Shown: positions 1 through 10,159 of the stretch, in pieces
Layout: every line of letters begins with the position of its first letter
Position numbering within the stretch: the first letter of the stretch is position 1
From: Candidatus Dormiibacterota bacterium
GTDB taxonomy: Bacteria > Chloroflexota > Dormibacteria > Aeolococcales > Aeolococcaceae
Length of the DNA stretch: 64,000 bases
Direction: 5' to 3'
NCBI GenBank assembly: GCA_963718525.1
Contig: OY970355.1
Span: 1,120,001 to 1,184,000, forward strand
Position numbers and translations under genes: made by a program
Notes under the pieces: model-generated
Databases searched by the model: none
What the model was told of the DNA's origin: nothing
The model's input: the letters and a program-made list of their open reading frames with translations, nothing else

Positions 1-175
1 CGGGCTCGAGGCCCTCGAGGATCTGGATCTGGTCAGCCGAATACGTGTCCTTGCCTACCCGCCCGGCGCTCTCCGGACTGGGGTCCGGATTGCCGTCTGA
101 ATGGGTCGTGGCGGGGCTCGTCTCTGTCTCGATCGCTACCTCATCGGGGCGTTCGGGGCGTGCGGTGTCGGTTAT
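1..175 (-). CDS. gyrB: DNA gyrase/topoisomerase IV subunit B, N-terminal fragment (runs off window)
   Basis: Not in the ORF track. The minus strand reads ...GKDTYSADQIQILEGLEP, the GyrB/ParE N-terminal motif. Start is uncertain: ATA at 175 after GGAG, or in-frame TTG at 259. Could be parE. Confidence 0.8.
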   Translation of the reverse strand, partial: MTDTARPERPDEVAIETETSPATTHSDGNPDPSPESAGRVGKDTYSADQIQILEGLEP

Positions 176-281
176 GTGTGCTGCTCCGGTTGTGACGTGA
201 CTGAGGGAGAGTGGGCCAAGGGTGAAACCGCTCGATTGTTCCAGCGGGGGACCGCTCAAATCGGCCGTTCCAAGTGCTTCT

Positions 282-290
282 ATTCTACCA
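282..290 (-). promoter_or_regulatory. Extended -10 promoter element for gyrB
   Basis: TGGTAGAAT (TGn-TAGAAT) on the minus strand upstream of the gyrB frame. Confidence 0.5.
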
Positions 291-401
291 GCCTGACGGC
301 CCAGTTCGCTCTATTGGAGTGGTTCGCTGCACTAGCATCAACGGCGTGAAGGACACTGTCCGTTGTGCGCCGATCCGGCCTGGTCGAGGGGGTCGATAAC
401 G

Positions 402-3236
402 GTGCCCACATCCACCCTTGAAGAGTACCGCCGCAAGCGCGATTTCAATCAGACCCCGGAGCCCAGCGGCGACCCGATCCCGCGTTCCGGTACGGACACT
501 TCGGCGTGGGAGGGCCTGCCCCATGGAACGCGCTTCTGCGTCCAGAAACACCGGGCCACACGACTGCATTTCGACTTTCGCCTGGAGCATCAGGGCGTGC
601 TGCTCTCGTGGGCGATCCCGAGGGGTCCCAGCCTCGATCCGGCCAAGAAGCGCCTGGCAGTGCAGACCGAGGACCATCCGATCGACTATGGCGAATTCGA
701 GGGTGTCATCCCCTCCGGGTACGGCGCCGGCACGGTCATGCTCTGGGACATCGGCACGTACGAGTGGATCAAGGAAACCGCCGAGGATTACGAGCGTTCG
801 CTGCAACGAGGCGACCTCAAGTTCCGCCTTCAGGGCACCAAGCTCTCGGGCGAGTTCGCGCTGATTCGTATCGGTGATCGTGGACGTCAGTACGGTGGCA
901 GCAACGACGGAGACAGGAACTGGCTGTTGATCAAAAAGCGCGACGCCTCCGTGGTGGAGGGATACGAGGCAAGCGACTACGACGTTTCAGTCAAAACCGG
1001 CAGAAGCCTGGCTCAGATCGCTCAGGAAGGAGGTGGTGATCGTCGCGAGATGCGCCGCGCCGCTCGTGTCCGTGGTGCTCCCGCCCCGGCACAGCCCACC
1101 GTGCCCACCTCGACGCTCGCTCAGGCGCCCTCGCCGATGCTGGCCACGCCGGTCGACAAGCCGTTTTCGCGGGATGGCTGGCTGTTCGAGCTGAAATACG
1201 ACGGCATTCGCGCCATGGTGACCGTCGCCGGTGACCTGATACGCATCACGGGCCGGCGCGGCGGGGATGAGACCGCTCGCTACCCGGAGGCCACGGCGAT
1301 ACGTTCGGGAATACGAGCTGGGCAGGCGATCGTCGACGGCGAGCTGGTGGTGCTCAACGCCGACGGCCGTCCGTCGTTCGAGCGGATGCAGCAGCGGATC
1401 GGCGTCAGCCGCGAGCCCGATGTCCGCCGAGTCTCGGCCGAACATCCAGTGACCTTCATCGCGTTTGACCTGCTCGAGTTGGACGGCCGCGACCTGCTCA
1501 ACACCGAGCTGCGCATTCGCAAGAAGACGCTTCGCGAAACCATCGTCAACTCGCCCCACATCCTGTTCGCCGAACACGTCGAGCGCGATGGAACATCGCT
1601 CTTCGAGGTTGCTCGTTCGTCCGGCATCGAAGGCATTGTCGGCAAGCGCGCCGATTCCCTGTACCACCCAGGAATTCGCAGCCCCGATTGGGTGAAGATC
1701 AAGTCGTGGCTCAGCCAGTCGTGCGTCATCGTCGGCTACACCGCAGGACGCGGACGCCGGGCAAACCAGCTCGGCGCACTCATCCTGGCCGTGCGCGACG
1801 GAGGGCATCTCGTCCACTGCGGACAGGTCGGCACCGGCTTCGATGACAAGACCCTGCGCGATATCAGGGACCGCCTCCGACCCCTCGAGGTGAAGACCTG
1901 CCCGCTCGACGTCACGCCGAAAACCGCAGAGCCGGCGACCTGGGTCAAACCCGAGCTCGTCTGCGAAGTCCGTTTCGCCGGATGGACGCGCGACGGCATC
2001 CTCCGCCACCCCGCCTACCGCACCCTCCGCCTCGACCAGCGCCCCGAAGACACCGTCCGCGAAGTCTTCCTGAAATCTGAGCCGGCCAACGCGCCCCGGC
2101 CTCGAAGGGAGGGGACTAAGGCCAGCATCCGTTCGAGGCGCACAGCAAAGGGCGTACGCACGCCCACCAGGGACTCGCGACCGGGTGGCGGGGTGGGGGA
2201 TGGCGCCACCGGAGCGCTGGGCGACGAGGATGCGTCGCCCACAAGAAAAACCGACACGCCAAAGGAGACCCGGCGCGCAGGTGGCGAGGGCCCCCCACCC
2301 CGACAGGACCCGGAGGATCATGCGGCGCTCAGCACGCTGAGAACCCTGCACGGCAATGCGCATTGGGAAATCGCAAGCCGAAGACTTCCGCTCACGAATC
2401 TCCAAAAGGTGCTCTGGCCGGCGGACGGCATCACCAAGCGGGACATGATCGAGTACTACGTCCGAATGGCACCGTACATGCTGCCCTACCTGCGCGACCG
2501 TCCCCTGTCGATGCAGGTGTTCCCCGACGGTATCGACGGAAAGTCCTTCTGGCGCAAGGATAAACCCACGCATGCTCCGGCATGGATCGAGGCGTGGACA
2601 TACCACGGTGAGAAGACCAAGACGTACATCGTGGTCAACGAGGTTGCCACGCTCGCCTGGGTCGCCAACGCCGGTGTCATCGATCTGCATCCGTGGCACT
2701 CGCGCATCGATGCGCCGGAGCAACCGGATTGGGCGGTCTTCGACCTGGATCCATTCGAGCCCGCAACGTTCCAGGACGTCATCGATATCGCCAAGCTGGT
2801 CAAGGCGGCGCTGGACCACTACGGCATGCATGGCGTGGTGAAGACGAGTGGGCAGACGGGGTTGCAGATCTACGTGCCCGTTCGCCGAGGCCCCGACTAC
2901 TCGGCGGTGCGTCACTGGGTGGAGGAGGTGGGCAGAGCGATCGATCAGGCGGCGCCCGGGCGCGTGAGCTGGGAGTGGTCGGTTGCGAAGCGGACGGGAC
3001 GTATCCGGATCGACTACACCCAGAACATCATCAACAAAACCCTTGCGGCGCCTTACTCTCTCCGCCCAGCGCCCGGCGCCCCGGTATCGACGCCGATCGA
3101 GTGGGCGGAGCTCGACGACCCGGACCTGAGACCCGATCGATGGAACATCGCAACCATCGCGGAGCGCGTCGCGGAGAAGGGGGACCTCTTCGCGCCAGCC
3201 CTGCTGGCAGACCAGGACCTTCCGAGCCATCCGTAG
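402..3236 (+). CDS. ligD: NHEJ DNA ligase D (phosphoesterase-ligase-polymerase order)
   Basis: PE motifs LEEYRRKRDF and QKHRATRLHFDFRLE; ligase motifs ELKYDG, DGE, FDLL, EGIVGK, WVKIK; primase-polymerase motifs FDLDP, KTSG, RIDY. GTG start at 402 follows GAGGGG. Confidence 0.95.
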   Translation: MPTSTLEEYRRKRDFNQTPEPSGDPIPRSGTDTSAWEGLPHGTRFCVQKHRATRLHFDFRLEHQGVLLSWAIPRGPSLDPAKKRLAVQTEDHPIDYGEFEGVIPSGYGAGTVMLWDIGTYEWIKETAEDYERSLQRGDLKFRLQGTKLSGEFALIRIGDRGRQYGGSNDGDRNWLLIKKRDASVVEGYEASDYDVSVKTGRSLAQIAQEGGGDRREMRRAARVRGAPAPAQPTVPTSTLAQAPSPMLATPVDKPFSRDGWLFELKYDGIRAMVTVAGDLIRITGRRGGDETARYPEATAIRSGIRAGQAIVDGELVVLNADGRPSFERMQQRIGVSREPDVRRVSAEHPVTFIAFDLLELDGRDLLNTELRIRKKTLRETIVNSPHILFAEHVERDGTSLFEVARSSGIEGIVGKRADSLYHPGIRSPDWVKIKSWLSQSCVIVGYTAGRGRRANQLGALILAVRDGGHLVHCGQVGTGFDDKTLRDIRDRLRPLEVKTCPLDVTPKTAEPATWVKPELVCEVRFAGWTRDGILRHPAYRTLRLDQRPEDTVREVFLKSEPANAPRPRREGTKASIRSRRTAKGVRTPTRDSRPGGGVGDGATGALGDEDASPTRKTDTPKETRRAGGEGPPPRQDPEDHAALSTLRTLHGNAHWEIASRRLPLTNLQKVLWPADGITKRDMIEYYVRMAPYMLPYLRDRPLSMQVFPDGIDGKSFWRKDKPTHAPAWIEAWTYHGEKTKTYIVVNEVATLAWVANAGVIDLHPWHSRIDAPEQPDWAVFDLDPFEPATFQDVIDIAKLVKAALDHYGMHGVVKTSGQTGLQIYVPVRRGPDYSAVRHWVEEVGRAIDQAAPGRVSWEWSVAKRTGRIRIDYTQNIINKTLAAPYSLRPAPGAPVSTPIEWAELDDPDLRPDRWNIATIAERVAEKGDLFAPALLADQDLPSHP

Positions 3237-3270
3237 CGTGGAGCGCGGATTGCGGGTACCCTGCGACGCG

Positions 3271-3903
3271 ATGCGACGGGTGCTCCTTCCGGCTGTGCTC
3301 CTCGCGGCCGCGACTGCCATCGCGTGTGGTTCGGGGTCCCCGACGGTGACGAGCACCGAGCCGACGCCCTTCACCGTGGCCCCGACGCCGGTTCAGAGCC
3401 AGACACCCCTGGCATCACCGACCGCCACTTCGACCGCCACGCCGACGGTGACCGCAACCGGGCCGTGCATGCCGGGTCAGTTCCAGGTCGCAATCCTGAA
3501 CACCCAGGGCGCCGCGGGCACCATCTACGCCACCTTCGAGGTTCGCAACGCTTCGACGAGCGACTGCACCGAGAACGGCTACGCCAGGCTGCAGCTGCTC
3601 AACTCCGGCCACGGTCTGCTGAGCACGAGCTGGTCGAACGACAACTCAATGGCCACTCCGAGCCCGGTCGACCTGCCCGCGGGCACCCAGCCGCTCGGAG
3701 TCACCGGCGCGACGGGACACGGCTATTTCCTGGTCTCGTGGACCGACGCGACCTGCTCCGCCGCGCAGTCCGAGATGCCCAAGTTCTGGCGGGTCACCCT
3801 GCCGACATCGCGGTTCCAGACGGATGTGGCCGATATCGACTCGAGCATGGTGTGCGGGGGTGCGATCAAGGTCGGCCCGATCAAGTCAGCCCCCTACGTC
3901 TGA
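3271..3903 (+). CDS. Lipoprotein, DUF4232-like
   Basis: Signal peptide with lipobox AIAC, Thr/Pro linker, then GAAGT...N.S...C...GY..L.L pattern. Confidence 0.7.
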   Translation: MRRVLLPAVLLAAATAIACGSGSPTVTSTEPTPFTVAPTPVQSQTPLASPTATSTATPTVTATGPCMPGQFQVAILNTQGAAGTIYATFEVRNASTSDCTENGYARLQLLNSGHGLLSTSWSNDNSMATPSPVDLPAGTQPLGVTGATGHGYFLVSWTDATCSAAQSEMPKFWRVTLPTSRFQTDVADIDSSMVCGGAIKVGPIKSAPYV

Positions 3904-3944
3904 CTGACCCCGGGGATCCTCGCTTCCCAATAGAATTCGGGGCC

Positions 3945-4466
3945 ATGGCAGTGTTGCTGCTCAACGCCTCGATGCAACCGCTCAACGTGATCAGTCACCG
4001 GCGGCTGGTGGTGCTCCTGACCAAGGAACGAGTCGCGTTCGTGGACGAGGCGGCGGAACGAGCTGCTGCGGAGGCGCTCGCGGGGCGCCGGCTGCCGGAA
4101 GGCGTCGTCATCGTCCGCCTGCTCCGGACCATCCACGTACCGCGCCGGTTGCTTCGACCCAACCGCCGCAACCTTCTGCTCCGCGACGATCACACGTGCC
4201 AATACTGTGGGCGCCTCGGCACCGCCGCCGAGCTCACCGTCGACCACGTCGTCCCGGTGTCTCGAGGGGGCGCTCCGGATCGCTGGGACAACGTCGTGAT
4301 CGCGTGCAGGAAGTGCAACTGGCGAAAGGCGAATCACCGTCCCGAAGAGGTCGGGCTCGTGCTCCGGCGTAAGCCGGTGCCGCTGACGCAGGAATACGCG
4401 CACATCATCTTTCTGCGCTACCCCGAGCTCAAGGCGGCGTACGACAGGCTGCTCGCCGCTGCCTGA
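3945..4466 (+). CDS. HNH endonuclease (McrA/HNH_5-type)
   Basis: LLLNASMQPL N-terminus; RDDHTCQYCG, TVDHVVPVSRGG, ACRKCNWRK. Confidence 0.9.
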   Translation: MAVLLLNASMQPLNVISHRRLVVLLTKERVAFVDEAAERAAAEALAGRRLPEGVVIVRLLRTIHVPRRLLRPNRRNLLLRDDHTCQYCGRLGTAAELTVDHVVPVSRGGAPDRWDNVVIACRKCNWRKANHRPEEVGLVLRRKPVPLTQEYAHIIFLRYPELKAAYDRLLAAA

Positions 4467-4528
4467 ATCGCGCCACGCCGATCCGACGATCGTCCAAGCC
4501 GATCCCGCGCGCCTATACTCGGGGGGCC

Positions 4529-5389
4529 ATGCCTCGATCCATGTGGCGCGGCGCCATCAGCTTTGGCATGGTGGCGATCCCCGTGCGGCTGTACCTGGCG
4601 ACCGAATCGAAGAGCGTTTCGTTCCGGCTTCTGTGTCCGGCTGACCACACGCCTGTCCGCAACAAGCGCTGGTGCCCGGAGGAGGACCGCGAGATCGGCT
4701 GGAGCGAAGCCGTTCGCGGGTACGAAGTGGGCAAGGACGAGTACGTGGTCGTCACCGATCAGGATCTCGACAACCTGCCGCTGATCACGACGCACACCAT
4801 CGACATCGTCGAGTTCTGCCCGGATTCGGAGATCGAGGCTGGCGTGTACCTCAAGAGCGCGTACTACCTGGAACCCGAGGCCGTCGGCGTCAAGCCCTAC
4901 GCGCTGCTCCGGGAGGCACTCGAGAAGACCGGCACGGTCGCCATCGGCAAGATCGCCCTTCGCGACCGCGAGCACCTCTGCCGCCTTGCACTGCATGAGC
5001 AGGGGCTGCTGCTCAACACGCTGCACTGGCCCGACGAGATCCGCTCCGCCGCCGAGCTGGCGATCCCCGAGCAGGCTCCTGACGTCGCCAAGAAGGAGCT
5101 GGACATGGCGGTGATGCTCGTCGAGAACATGAGCGCGCATTTCGACCCGGCGCGCTATCACGACAACTACCGCGAGGCGGTGATCCAGGTTGTCGAGGCC
5201 AAGCTGGCCAACAAGCCGATCGAGCGCCCGGAGGTGCAGGAACCCGGCAAGGTAACCGACCTCATGGCCGCGCTCAAGGCGTCTGTCGAAGCGGCGAAAA
5301 CGCGGCGGGCGGAAGGTGGTGCCTCCGAGGAATCCGAGGCCGACGACGCCGAGTCCCTGGAACCGGCCCGCCGTCGCCGGGCCTCCTGA
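4529..5389 (+). CDS. ku: Prokaryotic Ku, NHEJ end-binding protein
   Basis: MWRGAISFGMVAIPVRLY, YYLEP, LHWPDEIR, DLMAALKASV, basic C-terminal tail. Confidence 0.97.
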   Translation: MPRSMWRGAISFGMVAIPVRLYLATESKSVSFRLLCPADHTPVRNKRWCPEEDREIGWSEAVRGYEVGKDEYVVVTDQDLDNLPLITTHTIDIVEFCPDSEIEAGVYLKSAYYLEPEAVGVKPYALLREALEKTGTVAIGKIALRDREHLCRLALHEQGLLLNTLHWPDEIRSAAELAIPEQAPDVAKKELDMAVMLVENMSAHFDPARYHDNYREAVIQVVEAKLANKPIERPEVQEPGKVTDLMAALKASVEAAKTRRAEGGASEESEADDAESLEPARRRRAS

Positions 5390-5406
5390 GGCTTCACGGG
5401 TCACGC

Positions 5407-6516
5407 GTGGCTGGAAGACCAAGCCTGTCTCGTGCCGCCCTGGAGGCCTGCGGCGACCCTCTGCCCTTTCGATCGCCGGTACCGCCCCGGCTCCCGGGCT
5501 ACATCCCGTTTGAGACCTCCGTCCCGTGCGCGGAGGCGTTCGATGACCCCGACTGGCTGTTCAGCGTCGACTGGGATGGAGCAAGAGCGCTGCTCTTCAT
5601 CGACGCGGACGGATCGGTGCGCATCCAGGGCGAAGTGCTCCGTGACCTCGCGCGGCGTTTCCCTGACATCCCTGCGGCCGCGGCCATCCCCAATGGCCGG
5701 GGCGCTGTCCTCGACGGTGTCATCGGAGTGCTCGACCGGGAAGGCCGTCCGGACCTGGCGGGCTTCGGCCGTCGCCTCGCCGCCGGGCCGGCCGCAGCAG
5801 CAGAGCTTCCGGCGGTGTACCTCTGCTGTGACGTGCTGCACCTCGACGGGCGCTCGACGATGGGATGGCCCCTGGATCGTCGCCTCGATGCGCTCAGCGA
5901 TCTCACCCGCCGGAGTGACGTCCTCCAGGCGCCGGACCACGTGCGCGGACGCGGCGAGGCGCTCGCGGCCGCAGCAGCCGGACGGAGCCTGCCGGCGCTG
6001 CTCGCCCGGCGGGGCGCGGCTTGCTACCGGCCGGGCGTCGCCTCCCCTGATCGACTGCGCATCGGGCTCGCCGATCAGACGACCTGCGTCATCGCAGGCG
6101 TGGTTCCGCGCCGGGCTGGCACGAGGCTCATTCTCGGAGAGCATGTCGACGGTCGCCTCACCTTCGCGGGACAGGTCGAGGGACCGCGTGACCCGCTTGT
6201 GGCCGCGTGGCTCGCGCGGCACATCGCCGACCTGACGGTCAAAACCGCATCACTCGACGGCGTGCAACCTGTCAACGCGACCTGGCTGCGACCCGCGCTC
6301 ACCGCGACCGTCCGGCACCACGGCCGCAGCGCTGCCGGCGCGCTCCTGCGCCCGGCGCTCCTCGCGGTGCGCGACGACGTCGATCCGCGCTGGTGCGTGC
6401 AACGACCCGCGGTCGCCGGCCCGGTCGAGCTGCACGCCGGGACCCGCTTCTCGCCGACACTCCTGATACCGCTCCCTCTCGGCGATCTTTCAGGGCTCCC
6501 TCAGGCAAGTCGATGA
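5407..6516 (+). CDS. ATP-dependent DNA ligase-like protein (LigD/LigC ligase fold), predicted catalytically inactive
   Basis: Colinear with the LigD ligase and OB domains, but motif I is VDWDG (no Lys), III is DGVI, IV is PALLAR, V is RLRIG. Confidence 0.8.
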   Translation: MAGRPSLSRAALEACGDPLPFRSPVPPRLPGYIPFETSVPCAEAFDDPDWLFSVDWDGARALLFIDADGSVRIQGEVLRDLARRFPDIPAAAAIPNGRGAVLDGVIGVLDREGRPDLAGFGRRLAAGPAAAAELPAVYLCCDVLHLDGRSTMGWPLDRRLDALSDLTRRSDVLQAPDHVRGRGEALAAAAAGRSLPALLARRGAACYRPGVASPDRLRIGLADQTTCVIAGVVPRRAGTRLILGEHVDGRLTFAGQVEGPRDPLVAAWLARHIADLTVKTASLDGVQPVNATWLRPALTATVRHHGRSAAGALLRPALLAVRDDVDPRWCVQRPAVAGPVELHAGTRFSPTLLIPLPLGDLSGLPQASR

Positions 6517-7352
6517 CCGCTTCGGTCCTCATGTGCCGGCCCGATCACTTCGGGATCGAGTACGAGATCAACCCGTGGATGCACGTTGCGGTCGAGGTCG
6601 ATCACGCGCTGGCGGCGTCGCAGTGGGACGCGCTGTACCGCAAGTACGTCGATCTCGGCGTGGTTGTGGAGTTGGCGACATCCGTCGCGGGTCTGCCCGA
6701 CATGGTCTTCACCGCCAACGCGGCCGTGCTCTGGGACGACCGTGCGGTGCTGAGCAACTTCCATCATGCCGAACGGCAGGGCGAGGAGACGCACTGGCGC
6801 GAGGAACTCGAGCGCCTCGGCTTCGATGTTCACGAGCTGCCGCGATCGCTGTCCTTCGAGGGCGCCGGCGATGCCCTGTTCGTCGGTGATCGCCTGTTCT
6901 GCGGTTACGGGTTCCGGACCGACCGCGAGGCGCACCACCCGGTGGCGCGCATCCTCGAGGTCGAGGTCGTGTCACTCCAACTGGTCGACCCGCGCTTCTA
7001 TCACCTGGACACCTGCTTCTGCCCACTCGATGCCACCAATGTTCTCGCGGCCCCTGCCGCATTCGCCCCGGAGTCGATGCGCTTGATTCGCGAGCTGGTG
7101 CCGAATCTGATCGAGGTGCCGGTCGAGGTGGCGGCGGGCTTTGCGTGCAACGCCATGCCGCTCGGGCGGCACTTGCTCTCCTCGCTGACGATCTCGCAGT
7201 TGGAGACTCCTCTGAAGGCCGCCGGGTACACTCCGATTCCGCTGCCTATGGGGGAGTTCCTCAAGGCCGGTGGTGGGGTCCGCTGCCTCTCGCTGCCACT
7301 CGGTGAGCGAGGTCGCGCCCGCACCCAGGATGCCGCCCAAGGCTCAGGGTAG
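6513..7352 (+). CDS. Amidinotransferase/dimethylargininase (pentein) family protein
   Basis: YEINPWM, PDMVFTAN, FEGAGD, YHLDTC, KAGGGVRC; ATGA overlap with the upstream gene. Confidence 0.9.
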   Translation: MTASVLMCRPDHFGIEYEINPWMHVAVEVDHALAASQWDALYRKYVDLGVVVELATSVAGLPDMVFTANAAVLWDDRAVLSNFHHAERQGEETHWREELERLGFDVHELPRSLSFEGAGDALFVGDRLFCGYGFRTDREAHHPVARILEVEVVSLQLVDPRFYHLDTCFCPLDATNVLAAPAAFAPESMRLIRELVPNLIEVPVEVAAGFACNAMPLGRHLLSSLTISQLETPLKAAGYTPIPLPMGEFLKAGGGVRCLSLPLGERGRARTQDAAQGSG

Positions 7353-7363
7353 ATCCAACAACC

Positions 7364-7381
7364 TCTGAGCGTTTTCCCAGA
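7364..7381 (+). promoter_or_regulatory. PhoP-like direct-repeat box upstream of the response regulator
   Basis: TCTGAGC-gttt-TCCCAGA, same heptamer and 11-bp spacing as the boxes at 12391-12472. Confidence 0.45.
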
Positions 7382-7402
7382 CTTCCGCGCGAAGATGGTC
7401 CG

Positions 7403-8128
7403 GTGACCACCCCCACCCCTGGACAGCCGAGCCGGCTGCTTGTCGTTGACGATGAGCGTGCCATCACCGATCTTGTCGCGATGGCCCTCAAATACGAGGG
7501 CTTCTCGGTGCAGACCGCCGCCACCGCGAAGCAGGCCCGTCACGCGGTGATGGACTTCCGTCCGGACCTGATGATCCTGGACGTCGGGCTGCCGGACGAC
7601 GATGGATTCACGCTCGTCCAGCGCCTCATCACCGACGGCATCAAGGTGCCGGTGATCTTCCTCACCGCTCGGGATGCCACCGAGGAAAAGGTCCACGGGT
7701 TGACCATCGGTGGCGACGACTACGTGACCAAGCCCTTCAGCATCGAGGAGCTCGTCGCGCGGATCCGTGTCGTGCTCCGGCGCCACAATCCCGACGGCGC
7801 GGCGGCGAACGCCAAGCTCGTCCTCCACGACCTGGAGCTGGATGACGAGACGCACGAGGTCTTCCGCGCCGGGGAAGCGGTGGAGTTGACGCGCACCGAG
7901 TTCCGTCTGCTCCGCTATCTCATGATGAACAGCGGCCGCGTGCTGTCGCGCTCGCAGATCCTCGATCACGTCTGGGACTACGACTTCGGCGGCGACGCCA
8001 GCGTGCTCGAGACGTATATCAGCTACCTCCGCCGCAAGGTCGACAACGTCGACCCGCCGCTCATTCACACGGTCCGCGGGATCGGCTACGTCATTCGCCT
8101 CCCGCGCACCGCATCGGCGCATGCGTAA
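7403..8128 (+). CDS. OmpR-family response regulator (PhoP/TcrX-like)
   Basis: LVVDDE, ILDVGLP, DDYVTKPF, winged helix ILDHVWDYDFGGDASVLETYISYLRRK. Confidence 0.95.
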   Translation: MTTPTPGQPSRLLVVDDERAITDLVAMALKYEGFSVQTAATAKQARHAVMDFRPDLMILDVGLPDDDGFTLVQRLITDGIKVPVIFLTARDATEEKVHGLTIGGDDYVTKPFSIEELVARIRVVLRRHNPDGAAANAKLVLHDLELDDETHEVFRAGEAVELTRTEFRLLRYLMMNSGRVLSRSQILDHVWDYDFGGDASVLETYISYLRRKVDNVDPPLIHTVRGIGYVIRLPRTASAHA

Positions 8129-8158
8129 GCGGCGCGGGTGATGTTCTCAGGACGATAG

Positions 8159-9559
8159 ATGTCTCTTCGACTCCGGCTGCTGCTGACCCTGGCGCCGCTG
8201 TTCGTCCTCGGGCTCGCAGCCGCCGACGCCGGGACGTACGTGGCGTTGCAGAGCTCGCTGCTGCAGAACGTCGACAATCAGCTGGTCGCACTCCGCGACG
8301 GCGCAGAGAACGCCCTCGGGCATTCCGGGCCACCTGGCGGGCAGTTTGACAACGGCGGAGGCAGCGGCCAATTACCGCCGGGCACCTATGGCGAGCTCGT
8401 CGACGCATCCGGGCCTCTGAGCGGCGGCGGCCTGTACGGCGGCTACGTCCAGTCGACGCCATCGCATCCCGTGTTGCCCGCAACGATCTACAAAGACGCG
8501 GGCACGACGCTGTTGACGGTTCCCGGAGTCGGGACGTGGGATTCGTACCGAGTCCTCGTGACTCCGGACTCGAGTCAGCCCGGCACCGATCTGGTGGTCG
8601 CGCTCCCGCTCGACGGCGTCGACACCACCCTCGGCACGCTCCTGCTCTTCGAGATCGCCATCAGCAGTGGCATCACGATTGTCGTCCTGGTCGTCACGTG
8701 GTTGCTGGTACGCCGCGGGATGCGCCCCCTCGAACGCATGGGTGCCACCGCGCGGTCGATCGCGGCGGGTAACCTCGGTCGCCGGGTATCGCCGTCAAAC
8801 GAACGCACTGAGGTCGGCCAGCTCGGCCTCGCCCTCAACGGGATGTTGAGCCAGATCGAGCGAGCCTTTGCCGAGCGCGACGTCACCGAGCAGAAGTTGC
8901 GCCACTTCGTCTCCGACGCCTCGCACGAGTTGCGCACCCCGCTCACGTCGATGCGCGGCTACGCGGAGCTGCTGCAACGAAACCCCGACATGACGCGTGA
9001 CGATGTCCTGCTCGCGGTGCGGCGCATCGAGGACGAGACCCGGCGCATGGGCCTGCTGGTCGACGACCTGCTCCTGCTCGCGAGACTGGACCAGGGACGC
9101 CCCCTGGACAGGGCACCGGTCGATCTCACGTCGATGGTCAACGACGCCGTGAGCGACGCCCGGGCGGCCGACCCGGGGCGCTCGGTCAGCGCCCGGATCG
9201 AGGCGCCGATCGTGGTCACCGGCGACGACCTTCGCCTCCGACAGGCTGTGGCCAACCTCGTCCGAAACGCGCTGGTGCACACGCCGGCGGGGAGTCCTGT
9301 GGAGGTTGCGCTGCATCCCGAGAACGGGCACGTCGAGATCGACGTCATCGACCACGGTCCGGGCGTGCCAACCGCGCAGCGCGAGCGCATCTTCGAGCGT
9401 TTTCATCGTGCGGATCCTCTCCGCAGTCGCGACCAGGGCGGCAGCGGGTTGGGTCTGAGCATTGCGACGGCGGTGGTGACCGCGCATGGGGGAAGTATCA
9501 GCGTCACCGACACACCCGGCGGCGGCGCCACCTTCCGGATCGCGCTTCCGGCGGCGTGA
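8159..9559 (+). CDS. HAMP sensor histidine kinase (HisKA)
   Basis: Two TM helices, HAMP, H-box DASHELRTPL, NLVRNA, DHGPG, GSGLGLSI. Confidence 0.95.
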   Translation: MSLRLRLLLTLAPLFVLGLAAADAGTYVALQSSLLQNVDNQLVALRDGAENALGHSGPPGGQFDNGGGSGQLPPGTYGELVDASGPLSGGGLYGGYVQSTPSHPVLPATIYKDAGTTLLTVPGVGTWDSYRVLVTPDSSQPGTDLVVALPLDGVDTTLGTLLLFEIAISSGITIVVLVVTWLLVRRGMRPLERMGATARSIAAGNLGRRVSPSNERTEVGQLGLALNGMLSQIERAFAERDVTEQKLRHFVSDASHELRTPLTSMRGYAELLQRNPDMTRDDVLLAVRRIEDETRRMGLLVDDLLLLARLDQGRPLDRAPVDLTSMVNDAVSDARAADPGRSVSARIEAPIVVTGDDLRLRQAVANLVRNALVHTPAGSPVEVALHPENGHVEIDVIDHGPGVPTAQRERIFERFHRADPLRSRDQGGSGLGLSIATAVVTAHGGSISVTDTPGGGATFRIALPAA

Positions 9560-9571
9560 GGATGGGGCCTG

Positions 9572-10159
9572 ATGTCTAGTCAACTGCTCTGGTACACCAC
9601 CCGCGGCGCGGGCGCCGTCAGCATCGTGCTGCTGAGCGTGGTCGTCGTCCTCGGCCTGCTCGCACGCGTGCGCTTCGAGACACGTGGCTGGCCGCGGTTT
9701 CTGAGTGCGGCCGTCCACCGTGATCTTGCGCTGATGACGCTCGTGTTCCTGCTCCTGCACATCGTCACCGCAGTGGTCGACCCGTTCACCCATCTTGGCC
9801 TCGTGGCCGCGCTGGTTCCGTTCGGCTCGTACTACCGAACGTTCTGGCTCGGCCTCGGGACGATCGCCTTTGAACTGCTCATCGCGATCGTCGCCACCAG
9901 CCTGCTCCGGAAGCACATCGGTGCGCGTGTGTGGCGGTCGATCCACTGGCTTGCCTATCTGAGCTGGCCTGTCGCGGTGGTGCATGGCATCGGCACCGGC
10001 ACCGATGGGACAGCGCGATGGATGCTGACCATCGATGCGGTATGCGTCGTCGCAGTTGGGGCGGCGCTCATGTGGCGGCTGGTTGCGGCTCCCCCGGATC
10101 CGCTCGCCGACGAGCGCCGCCTGGCCGCGGAGCGCGCGTCGTTCGGCACCGATCGATGA
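9572..10159 (+). CDS. Ferric reductase-like/MsrQ-like heme-binding membrane protein
   Basis: LWYTTRGAG start; multiple TM helices with four His (VHRDL, LHIV, IHWL, VHGI). Confidence 0.85.
   Translation: MSSQLLWYTTRGAGAVSIVLLSVVVVLGLLARVRFETRGWPRFLSAAVHRDLALMTLVFLLLHIVTAVVDPFTHLGLVAALVPFGSYYRTFWLGLGTIAFELLIAIVATSLLRKHIGARVWRSIHWLAYLSWPVAVVHGIGTGTDGTARWMLTIDAVCVVAVGAALMWRLVAAPPDPLADERRLAAERASFGTDR

Follow-up and report, generated by a model that had tools for sequence, protein, structure and literature searches.

A predicted non-catalytic LigD-type ligase paralog encoded directly after ku in Dormibacteria

Non-homologous end joining (NHEJ) in bacteria is described as the work of Ku and LigD only in the available sections of PMC7969030, PMC12784961 and PMC12784962. 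According to excerpts of PMC9638933 and PMC13717202, the Ku of Mycobacterium tuberculosis binds the ligase domain of LigD directly, via the Ku core and C-terminus, and an excerpt of PMC12848934 gives a comparable repair efficiency for the M. smegmatis LigD mutant K484A. A ligase fold can therefore matter in the repair complex without sealing DNA. The structural role of DNA ligase IV (Lig4) in vertebrate NHEJ is the subject of PMC10858965, going by its excerpt. Here we describe a gene found in a stretch of 64,000 nucleotides (the window; positions 1,120,001 to 1,184,000 of contig OY970355.1, assembly GCA_963718525.1, Candidatus Dormiibacterota bacterium). The gene lies directly downstream of ku and encodes a stand-alone paralog of the LigD ligase domain that lacks the motif I lysine. 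The protein, referred to here as the pseudo-ligase, is a pseudoenzyme branch of the NHEJ ligase family, and by fold and descent it is a LigD-type ligase domain.

The ligase domain of M. tuberculosis LigD (Protein Data Bank (PDB) codes 1vs0, 6nhx and 6nhz) has in common with the pseudo-ligase a two-domain fold, homology and the company of ku and LigD. In contrast to that domain, the pseudo-ligase is without the motif I lysine, has motifs Ia, III, IIIa, IV, V and part of VI replaced, stands alone rather than being fused to polymerase and phosphoesterase domains, and carries a C-terminal tail of 34 residues. Functionally, the nearest precedents are engineered ligase-dead LigD and DNA ligase IV, in which a ligase fold aids end joining without sealing. 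Those proteins are laboratory mutants of a working enzyme, whereas the pseudo-ligase is a natural, separate paralog in which the pocket has been rebuilt and not altered by a single substitution. LigC, a second ATP-dependent ligase of Actinobacteria that serves as an NHEJ back-up and in excision repair, is likewise an extra stand-alone paralog beside LigD, but it is catalytically active and not linked to ku (PMC5663958, from the part available).

A literature search confined to openly accessible articles, without their supplements, found no published description of a natural lysine-less LigD paralog. A term search of the accessible portions of two reviews (PMC8656161 and PMC7719229) returned no mention of one, and the matches to the word "pseudoligase" all concerned ubiquitin ligases.

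The open reading frame after ku and its catalytic motifs

The genes and protein segments on which the comparison turns are listed below.

363..3236, + strand: full-length LigD, 957 residues, phosphoesterase-ligase-polymerase, each domain scoring strongly; ligase motifs all intact
4529..5389, + strand: ku, 286 residues (PF02735, 3.7e-42; TIGR02772, 7e-87), directly upstream of the pseudo-ligase
5407..6516, + strand: pseudo-ligase open reading frame, lysine-less LigD-type ligase paralog, GTG start, 369 residues plus stop
5407..5544, + strand: N-terminal segment, residues 1-46, predicted disordered (predicted local distance difference test score (pLDDT) below 50 at residues 1-26 and 42-46)
5545..6081, + strand: nucleotidyltransferase-like domain, residues 47-225, with S53-V-D55-W-D-G-A-R60, E76, D103-G-V105, R201-R202 and D215-R-L-R218
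5563..5586, + strand: motif I remnant SVDWDGAR, with Asp55 in the column of the adenylated lysine
6082..6411, + strand: OB-fold domain, residues 226-335, with motif VI partly retained (R322, D324)
6412..6513, + strand: predicted disordered C-terminal tail, residues 336-369 (pLDDT 34-41), with the end motif F348-x-P-T-[LV]-L-x-x-L356-P357-L

An earlier note on this DNA, made from its letters and open reading frames, had described an intact 369-residue frame beginning 17 nucleotides after ku, and the coordinates bear this out. The frame ends with TGA (6514-6516), which overlaps the ATG of the next gene (6513-6515) as ATGA. The ku gene is present in a single copy in the genome, which is one contig of 3.34 Mb. 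A genome-wide search with the ATP-ligase domain model gave five matching stretches, namely LigD, the pseudo-ligase and three distant others. The window's LigD is presumed to be the working NHEJ ligase, and the three lysine-scoring ATP-ligase genes elsewhere in the genome are more likely LigC-like enzymes.

The alignment of the frame with the ligase and OB domains of the window's LigD, also proposed in that note, is recovered by BLASTP with 30% identity over 333 residues (E 1e-30). Domain models score low: PF01068 gives 26.6 bits against a cut-off of 26.2, PF04679 gives 23.1 against 27.5, and NCBIfam TIGR02779 gives 112.3 against 227.75. When a profile of the family was compared with the PDB, it matched the M. 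tuberculosis LigD ligase domain (1vs0/6nhx) with an E-value of about 1e-33. Modeling with AlphaFold2 from 87 family sequences gave a structure with a mean pLDDT of 80.5 and a predicted template modeling score of 0.78, confident over residues 47-335. Foldseek places this model closest to 6nhx (E 5e-23) and 6nhz, both ATP-bound, closed LigD ligase structures, followed by 1vs0. The pseudo-ligase is thus modeled as a nucleotidyltransferase and OB two-domain fold, and the E-values together with the fold exclude a chance resemblance. The structural residues that had been picked out by eye (WLF, GRPD, DVLHLDG, YRPG..SPD and WLRP) are all present. The core remains basic, with an isoelectric point of 9.06 over residues 47-335, as compared with 9.09 for the ligase part of LigD. 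The N-terminal segment is the counterpart of the PMLA-type lead-in found in LigD ligase domains but has Glu for Met, and its conserved residues are P30, E36, P40, C41, F45 and D46.

The catalytic motifs are replaced throughout. Relative to LigD, ELKYDG of motif I reads SVDWDG, VDGELVV of motif III reads LDGVIGV, EGIVGKR of motif IV reads PALLARR, and DWVKIKS of motif V reads DRLRIGL; the alignment upholds all four replacements as first noticed. In the profile alignment, D55 lies opposite the Lys of FEGKWDGYR in M. tuberculosis LigD (1vs0/6nhx). Further losses affect motif Ia, where Arg is replaced by Glu76, motif IIIa, where the aromatic residue is variable, and motif VI, where one Arg is gone. 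The change from Lys to Asp had been singled out as a point to follow across orthologs, and it extends to the whole family, in which the lysine column holds Asp or Glu in 25 of 25 and 32 of 32 members in two alignments.

For a quantitative comparison, 70 lysine-bearing LigD-type domains were set against 32 members of the pseudo-ligase family. The lysine-bearing domains have E, F, E/G/K and W/K/K at the positions of motifs III, IIIa, IV and V, with a conservation of 94-100%. Forty-eight columns are at least 85% conserved in these domains; the pseudo-ligase family keeps 26 of them, chiefly Gly, Pro, Trp, Leu and Asp with a few Arg, and all catalytic motif positions are among the 22 that it changes. 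The replacement residues S53, D55, E76, V105, R201, A212, R216 and R218 are themselves 94-100% conserved and therefore represent a new fixed state rather than drift. No column of the 87-sequence family alignment has Lys in 30% or more of its rows, and the median number of Lys per protein is one. In the absence of a column with a conserved lysine, a displaced nucleophile is not on offer. Judged by the features that define the enzyme, which are the motif I lysine, motifs III-V and the NCBIfam cut-off, the pseudo-ligase would fall outside the ligases. It is predicted to be unable to form the lysyl-AMP intermediate and to be non-catalytic.

The protein is nevertheless well conserved. All sequences used here come from metagenomes or metagenome-assembled genomes of uncultured organisms. 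A word-indexed search returned 147 homologues with an intact frame, down to 45% identity, and the 120 listed are mostly 330-375 residues long; the nearest named homologues carry the label Candidatus Dormibacteria. An exhaustive profile search gave about 25 clusters of the pseudo-ligase type at the 50%-identity level, scoring from 480 down to 222 bits, above ordinary LigD proteins, which plateau near 200 bits. The residues C41, F45, W56, G58, R60, D103, G104, R201, R202, Y207, S213, R216, W329, C330, R333, F348, L356 and P357 are invariant. Automatic annotation labels these homologues "bifunctional NHEJ protein LigD" or "ATP-dependent DNA ligase", so ligase numbers taken from such labels in genome surveys may be too high.

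The median pairwise ratio of nonsynonymous to synonymous substitution rates (dN/dS) of the pseudo-ligase is 0.133 (Nei-Gojobori method, 26 codon-aligned sequences, 322 pairs with dS of 0.05-1.5), a value that is rough at a median dS of about 0.9 and that counts through its comparison with the neighbouring genes. By the same procedure, LigD gives 0.140, its ligase part 0.149 and Ku 0.109. Within the pseudo-ligase, the nucleotidyltransferase part has the lowest ratio (0.109), and the OB part and the tail have ratios of 0.18 and 0.175. With its catalytic residues lost, its fold predicted to be kept and its codons under purifying selection, the pseudo-ligase is a selectively maintained pseudoenzyme. 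The view that it is a retained pseudo-enzyme rather than a decaying pseudogene, put forward when the gene was first noticed together with the expectation of a dN/dS below 1, is therefore borne out by the lysine loss in all family members, the linkage to ku described below, the dN/dS of 0.13 and the conserved replacements.

One metagenome singleton (P0286, 804 residues) combines a ligase part of the family type with a response-regulator receiver domain. It is most likely a fusion created by gene calling or assembly and was not accepted as a true fused form. It is the sole longer protein of this kind among those searched, and no recurrent fusion that would name a partner was found among them.

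Linkage to ku and relationship to other stand-alone ligases

Synteny with ku was anticipated in the earlier note and is strict in close relatives. Among 27 close metagenome loci, ku lies directly before the pseudo-ligase in all 24 that reach upstream; the contigs of the remaining three begin inside or just before the pseudo-ligase gene. In all 18 loci that reach far enough, LigD, a DUF4232 gene and a small HNH endonuclease gene are present and ordered as in the window, with LigD on the same strand. Five of eight other genomes of the same GTDB family contain the gene (44-50% identity), and in 5/5 it stands directly after ku. The other three (1.5-2.0 Mb, 91-98% complete) gave no LigD-type match with the pseudo-ligase as query and no Ku with the Pfam model. 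Loci L010 and L035 are from unpublished genomes (G173 is among the five family genomes, and G038 corresponds to L035), and the counts stand without them. The gene is thus linked to ku, and it co-occurs with Ku and LigD.

Beyond what was noticed at first, the closest relatives of the pseudo-ligase turned out to be ku-linked stand-alone ligases rather than the window's LigD, with a shared tail and with lysine loss in several lineages. GTDB families were coded f1-f19, with f1 as the family of the window. Directly behind ku, other families of this class encode a stand-alone LigD-type ligase of 345-400 residues. Of the four Dormibacteria families sampled, one keeps the lysine and three have lost it, with D/E, A or R in its place. 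The family that keeps it, f3, retains all motifs in 6/6 genomes (EVKWDG, DGELV, EGVVAKH and WLKVK). In f2 (4/4 genomes) the lysine is replaced by Ala and motif V is lost, and in f4 (3/3 genomes) it is replaced by Arg, with the Glu of motif III and motif V lost as well. Family f16, of another class, has Arg for the lysine together with an altered Gly (E[VT]RW[DNS][CG]; loci L033, L035 and L120-L122). All genomes examined in f1-f4 also hold a LigD-type ligase domain with intact motifs.

The f3 ligases (L013, L015, L016, L019, L022 and L023) are the closest natural relatives of the pseudo-ligase, and no experimental study of them was found. They share its position after ku, its length, its type of tail and its side of the tree, and they are 33-35% identical to it. 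They differ in that all catalytic motifs are kept, and from these motifs they look like working ligases. In f3 genomes (L114-L119), a phosphoesterase-ligase gene and an adjacent polymerase gene, both of which look intact, take the place of a single LigD gene. A rule tying lysine loss to a full LigD and lysine retention to its absence was considered and dropped, as f3 also has phosphoesterase-ligase and polymerase genes. In f4, the LigD gene after the dead ligase was flagged for one in-frame stop, TAG or TGA (G110:C1:51781-52713 and G041:C19:62128-63075); the f4 LigD genes in L021 and L025 have intact ligase motifs.

The tail follows one layout in all tail-bearing proteins: P-x-x-C-[VI]-R, then 10-25 often basic or proline-rich residues, and then a hydrophobic end motif. 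The end motif is PT[LV]L..LP[LFI] in the window's family, LP[QR]LP[LI] or similar in f2, ELPQLPF in f4, DLTRFPF in f3 and TLPLPL in f16. In the window's family, F348, L356 and P357 of the tail do not vary, and P350 and T351 reach at least 90% conservation. The tail is missing from all 70 lysine-bearing LigD-type domains in the comparison and from the window's LigD as well. The f16 tail is longer, with a second conserved piece, RP.LR[LV]V, after TLPLPL. A sliding-clamp-binding motif was tried as the identity of the tail and rejected on weak evidence, the tail being unlike QLDLF of the DinB homologue of this genome. That homologue (G000:C1:1097363-1097827, − strand, outside the window) carries the canonical QLDLF clamp-binding motif about 45 residues before its C-terminus.

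A maximum-likelihood tree was computed from 58 ligase domains after the fill filter had removed the tail columns. A branch with support 97/90 separates the tail-bearing proteins from all LigD domains, that of the window included. The pseudo-ligase is therefore not a recent copy of the neighbouring LigD, and it descends from a ku-linked stand-alone ligase.

The best tree nests the lysine-keeping f3 among the lysine-less families, as (f1,(f16,(f4,(f2,f3)))). This arrangement is most simply read as several independent losses of the lysine from an active ancestor, because the replacement residue (D/E, A or R) and the extent of decay of the other motifs differ by lineage. A tree with all lysine-less sequences in one clade was not rejected by an approximately unbiased test (p 0.19), and a single loss with a later return from Arg to Lys in f3 is a tenable, less simple account.

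Apart from the question of the tree, two sets of counts point to repeated loss of the lysine from a second, stand-alone LigD-type ligase as a theme of Chloroflexota. When the best 150 representatives from the exhaustive search are scored for their motif I residue, K is present in 103; the others carry D (24), L (6), R (4), A (3) or N (2), with E, G, S and I once each and four fragments without the region. The lysine-less proteins in this set all have at most 401 residues, and all proteins of at least 460 residues keep the lysine. In records labelled Dehalococcoidia or Chloroflexota (L132-L147), the lysine is replaced by I, L or M in 13 of the 15 stand-alone copies close to the query type. The lysine-less copies there have no tail and adjoin a full LigD on the opposite strand, head-to-head or tail-to-tail, and Ku lies just past LigD wherever the locus extends far enough. 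The same LigD-adjacent arrangement is seen with the lysine retained in L135 and L140.

Possible roles of the pseudo-ligase

On these comparisons we favor, with a probability of roughly 0.55, a role for the pseudo-ligase as a non-catalytic accessory subunit of Ku-LigD end joining. Its binding to Ku, LigD or DNA and the sign of its effect we infer from sequence. The ancestral ku-linked stand-alone ligase would already have had a structural role and a disordered C-terminal docking tail. Catalysis by the ku-linked copy could then have become dispensable, as we propose, because the genome also has a complete LigD to seal the DNA, and the structural job would have been retained. The former nucleotide pocket would have been rebuilt into a new set of conserved residues, with D55 and E76 facing R201, R216 and R218 in a putative self-filled pocket. 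Made together with Ku, the protein would place its ligase-fold body where a ligase domain usually sits on Ku or the DNA end, and the tail, a candidate docking peptide, would engage a partner. In this way the pseudo-ligase may help to assemble, hold or time the repair complex. The Ku-binding adaptor, end protector and dominant-negative regulator named in the earlier note are candidate modes of action.

Eukaryotic NHEJ offers a functional analogy only. The Ku-binding motifs of XRCC4, XLF, PAXX and APLF suggest what a non-catalytic factor with a disordered terminal peptide could do, and these proteins have no sequence or fold relationship to the pseudo-ligase. By analogy, the f2 and f4 tails, with a basic stretch followed by a hydrophobic motif, may be compared with such motifs. 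To our knowledge, bacterial Ku lacks the domains that the eukaryotic motifs bind.

Several observations weigh against an accessory role. There is no clear Shine-Dalgarno sequence before the GTG of the pseudo-ligase, although the N-terminus is conserved among homologues. Linkage to ku is not universal in the wider clade, as no ku was found within 2.5 kb of the f16 copies. Glu76 takes the place of the motif Ia Arg that contacts DNA in active ligases, and the usual nick-binding mode may therefore be lost. The ATGA overlap with an arginine-metabolism gene could indicate an unrelated role. A single co-folding run of a Ku dimer with the whole pseudo-ligase, both given as alignments, scored 0.28 and 0.18, below the mark of 0.32, and counts neither for nor against the accessory role.

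If the accessory role is true, the pseudo-ligase would be the first natural non-enzymatic accessory factor of bacterial NHEJ and would challenge the two-component picture. It would also serve as an experiment of nature on what ligases do structurally in break repair, so far deduced from engineered ligase-dead mutants only, and the conserved C-terminal tail would provide a concrete, testable candidate docking motif. A more general proposal is that NHEJ in Dormibacteria and other Chloroflexota has three components, the third being a ligase-fold subunit that has repeatedly and independently lost catalysis, is docked by its tail, a bacterial counterpart of the eukaryotic Ku-binding motifs, and helps Ku and LigD to bridge or order the ends. 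Such a subunit would be a natural equivalent of the "structural ligase" role of ligase-dead Lig4 and LigD mutants. We regard this extension as tentative and would sooner bet against it.

The pseudo-ligase could instead be a negative regulator or decoy, a dead fold that would compete with the ligase domain of LigD for Ku or 5'-phosphate ends and so delay or limit sealing, for example until the ends are processed, or restrain mutagenic end joining. Such a role draws on the same homology, fold and motif losses as a scaffold does, nothing separates it from a positive scaffold role, and the replaced catalytic residues are fixed rather than random. The direct binding of Ku to the LigD ligase domain in M. 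tuberculosis (PMC9638933 and PMC13717202, in excerpt) means that a look-alike could compete. However, repeated loss of the lysine with the protein kept is simpler if the active ancestor was already structurally useful, and a pure inhibitor in strict 1:1 linkage to ku in every Ku-bearing genome of the family is less economical. We therefore consider a decoy unlikely.

The strong conservation of the rebuilt pocket (S53, D55, E76, R201, R216 and R218, 94-100%) invites another explanation, in which the pocket binds a nucleotide, a 5'-adenylated DNA end or some other ligand, or uses a nucleophile other than lysine. D57, G58 and R60 of motif I are retained, three arginines occupy former lysine positions of motifs IV and V or the neighbouring Trp position, and dN/dS is at its lowest within the protein in the nucleotidyltransferase part (0.109). 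On the other side, there is no conserved Lys anywhere in the family, motif III has Val in place of the ribose-binding Glu, and motif IIIa has no constant aromatic residue for adenine stacking. All members of the nucleotidyltransferase superfamily known to us use the motif I lysine, which also counts against residual chemistry. We hold this explanation to be quite improbable.

A function outside end joining, for example with the arginine-metabolism gene or a two-component system, would make the linkage to ku historical. The ATGA overlap with the dimethylargininase / arginine dihydrolase-like (DDAH-like) gene fits such a function, as does the order ku, pseudo-ligase, DDAH-like gene, response regulator and kinase, which is conserved in close relatives. 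In distant genera, however, the DDAH-like gene is separated from the pseudo-ligase or absent from the locus and ku is still directly upstream; presence and absence of the pseudo-ligase follow Ku and LigD, and its relatives are all NHEJ ligases. A function of this kind is very unlikely. Finally, the loss of all catalytic motifs and Pfam scores at or under the cut-offs are what a non-functional relic or an annotation artefact would give, but this can hardly be the explanation for a gene with an intact frame in 147 homologues down to 45% identity, a dN/dS of 0.13, equal to that of LigD, many invariant residues and a confidently modeled fold.

Neighbouring genes

The genes from LigD to the DDAH-like gene all lie on the + strand, and those not listed above are as follows.

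3238..3903, + strand: DUF4232 gene with a signal-peptide-like N-terminus, between LigD and the HNH gene
3945..4466 (start approximate), + strand: small HNH endonuclease gene (PF01844, 1.7e-13), between LigD and ku; context
6513..7352, + strand: DDAH-like gene; context, with no claim that it belongs to the system

The DDAH-like protein scores 278.7 against an NCBIfam cut-off of 300, just under it. The gene adjoins the pseudo-ligase in closer relatives only, and its dN/dS is 0.105. PADLOC models of anti-phage defence gave no match for the pseudo-ligase or for Ku. The terminator scan of positions 1-9800 gave three terminator-like sites against 3.7 expected, which is uninformative at high GC, and the promoter scan of the same positions gave no promoter-like site and is uninformative for a high-GC host.

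Between its ligase and polymerase domains, the LigD of the window contains an Arg-, Pro-, Gly- and Thr-rich linker of about 90 residues (2100-2400; residues ~575-665). The DUF4232 gene is the fastest-evolving of the cluster (dN/dS 0.218), and its position is nonetheless conserved. The HNH gene is the most conserved, with a dN/dS of 0.050 and protein identities of 95-99% where Ku has 81-98%, and its position is kept in all close relatives. The sole matches of the HNH protein to defence models are weak and fall on HNH parts (PtuB-like). The protein could be an end-processing nuclease of the locus or the product of a plain housekeeping gene.

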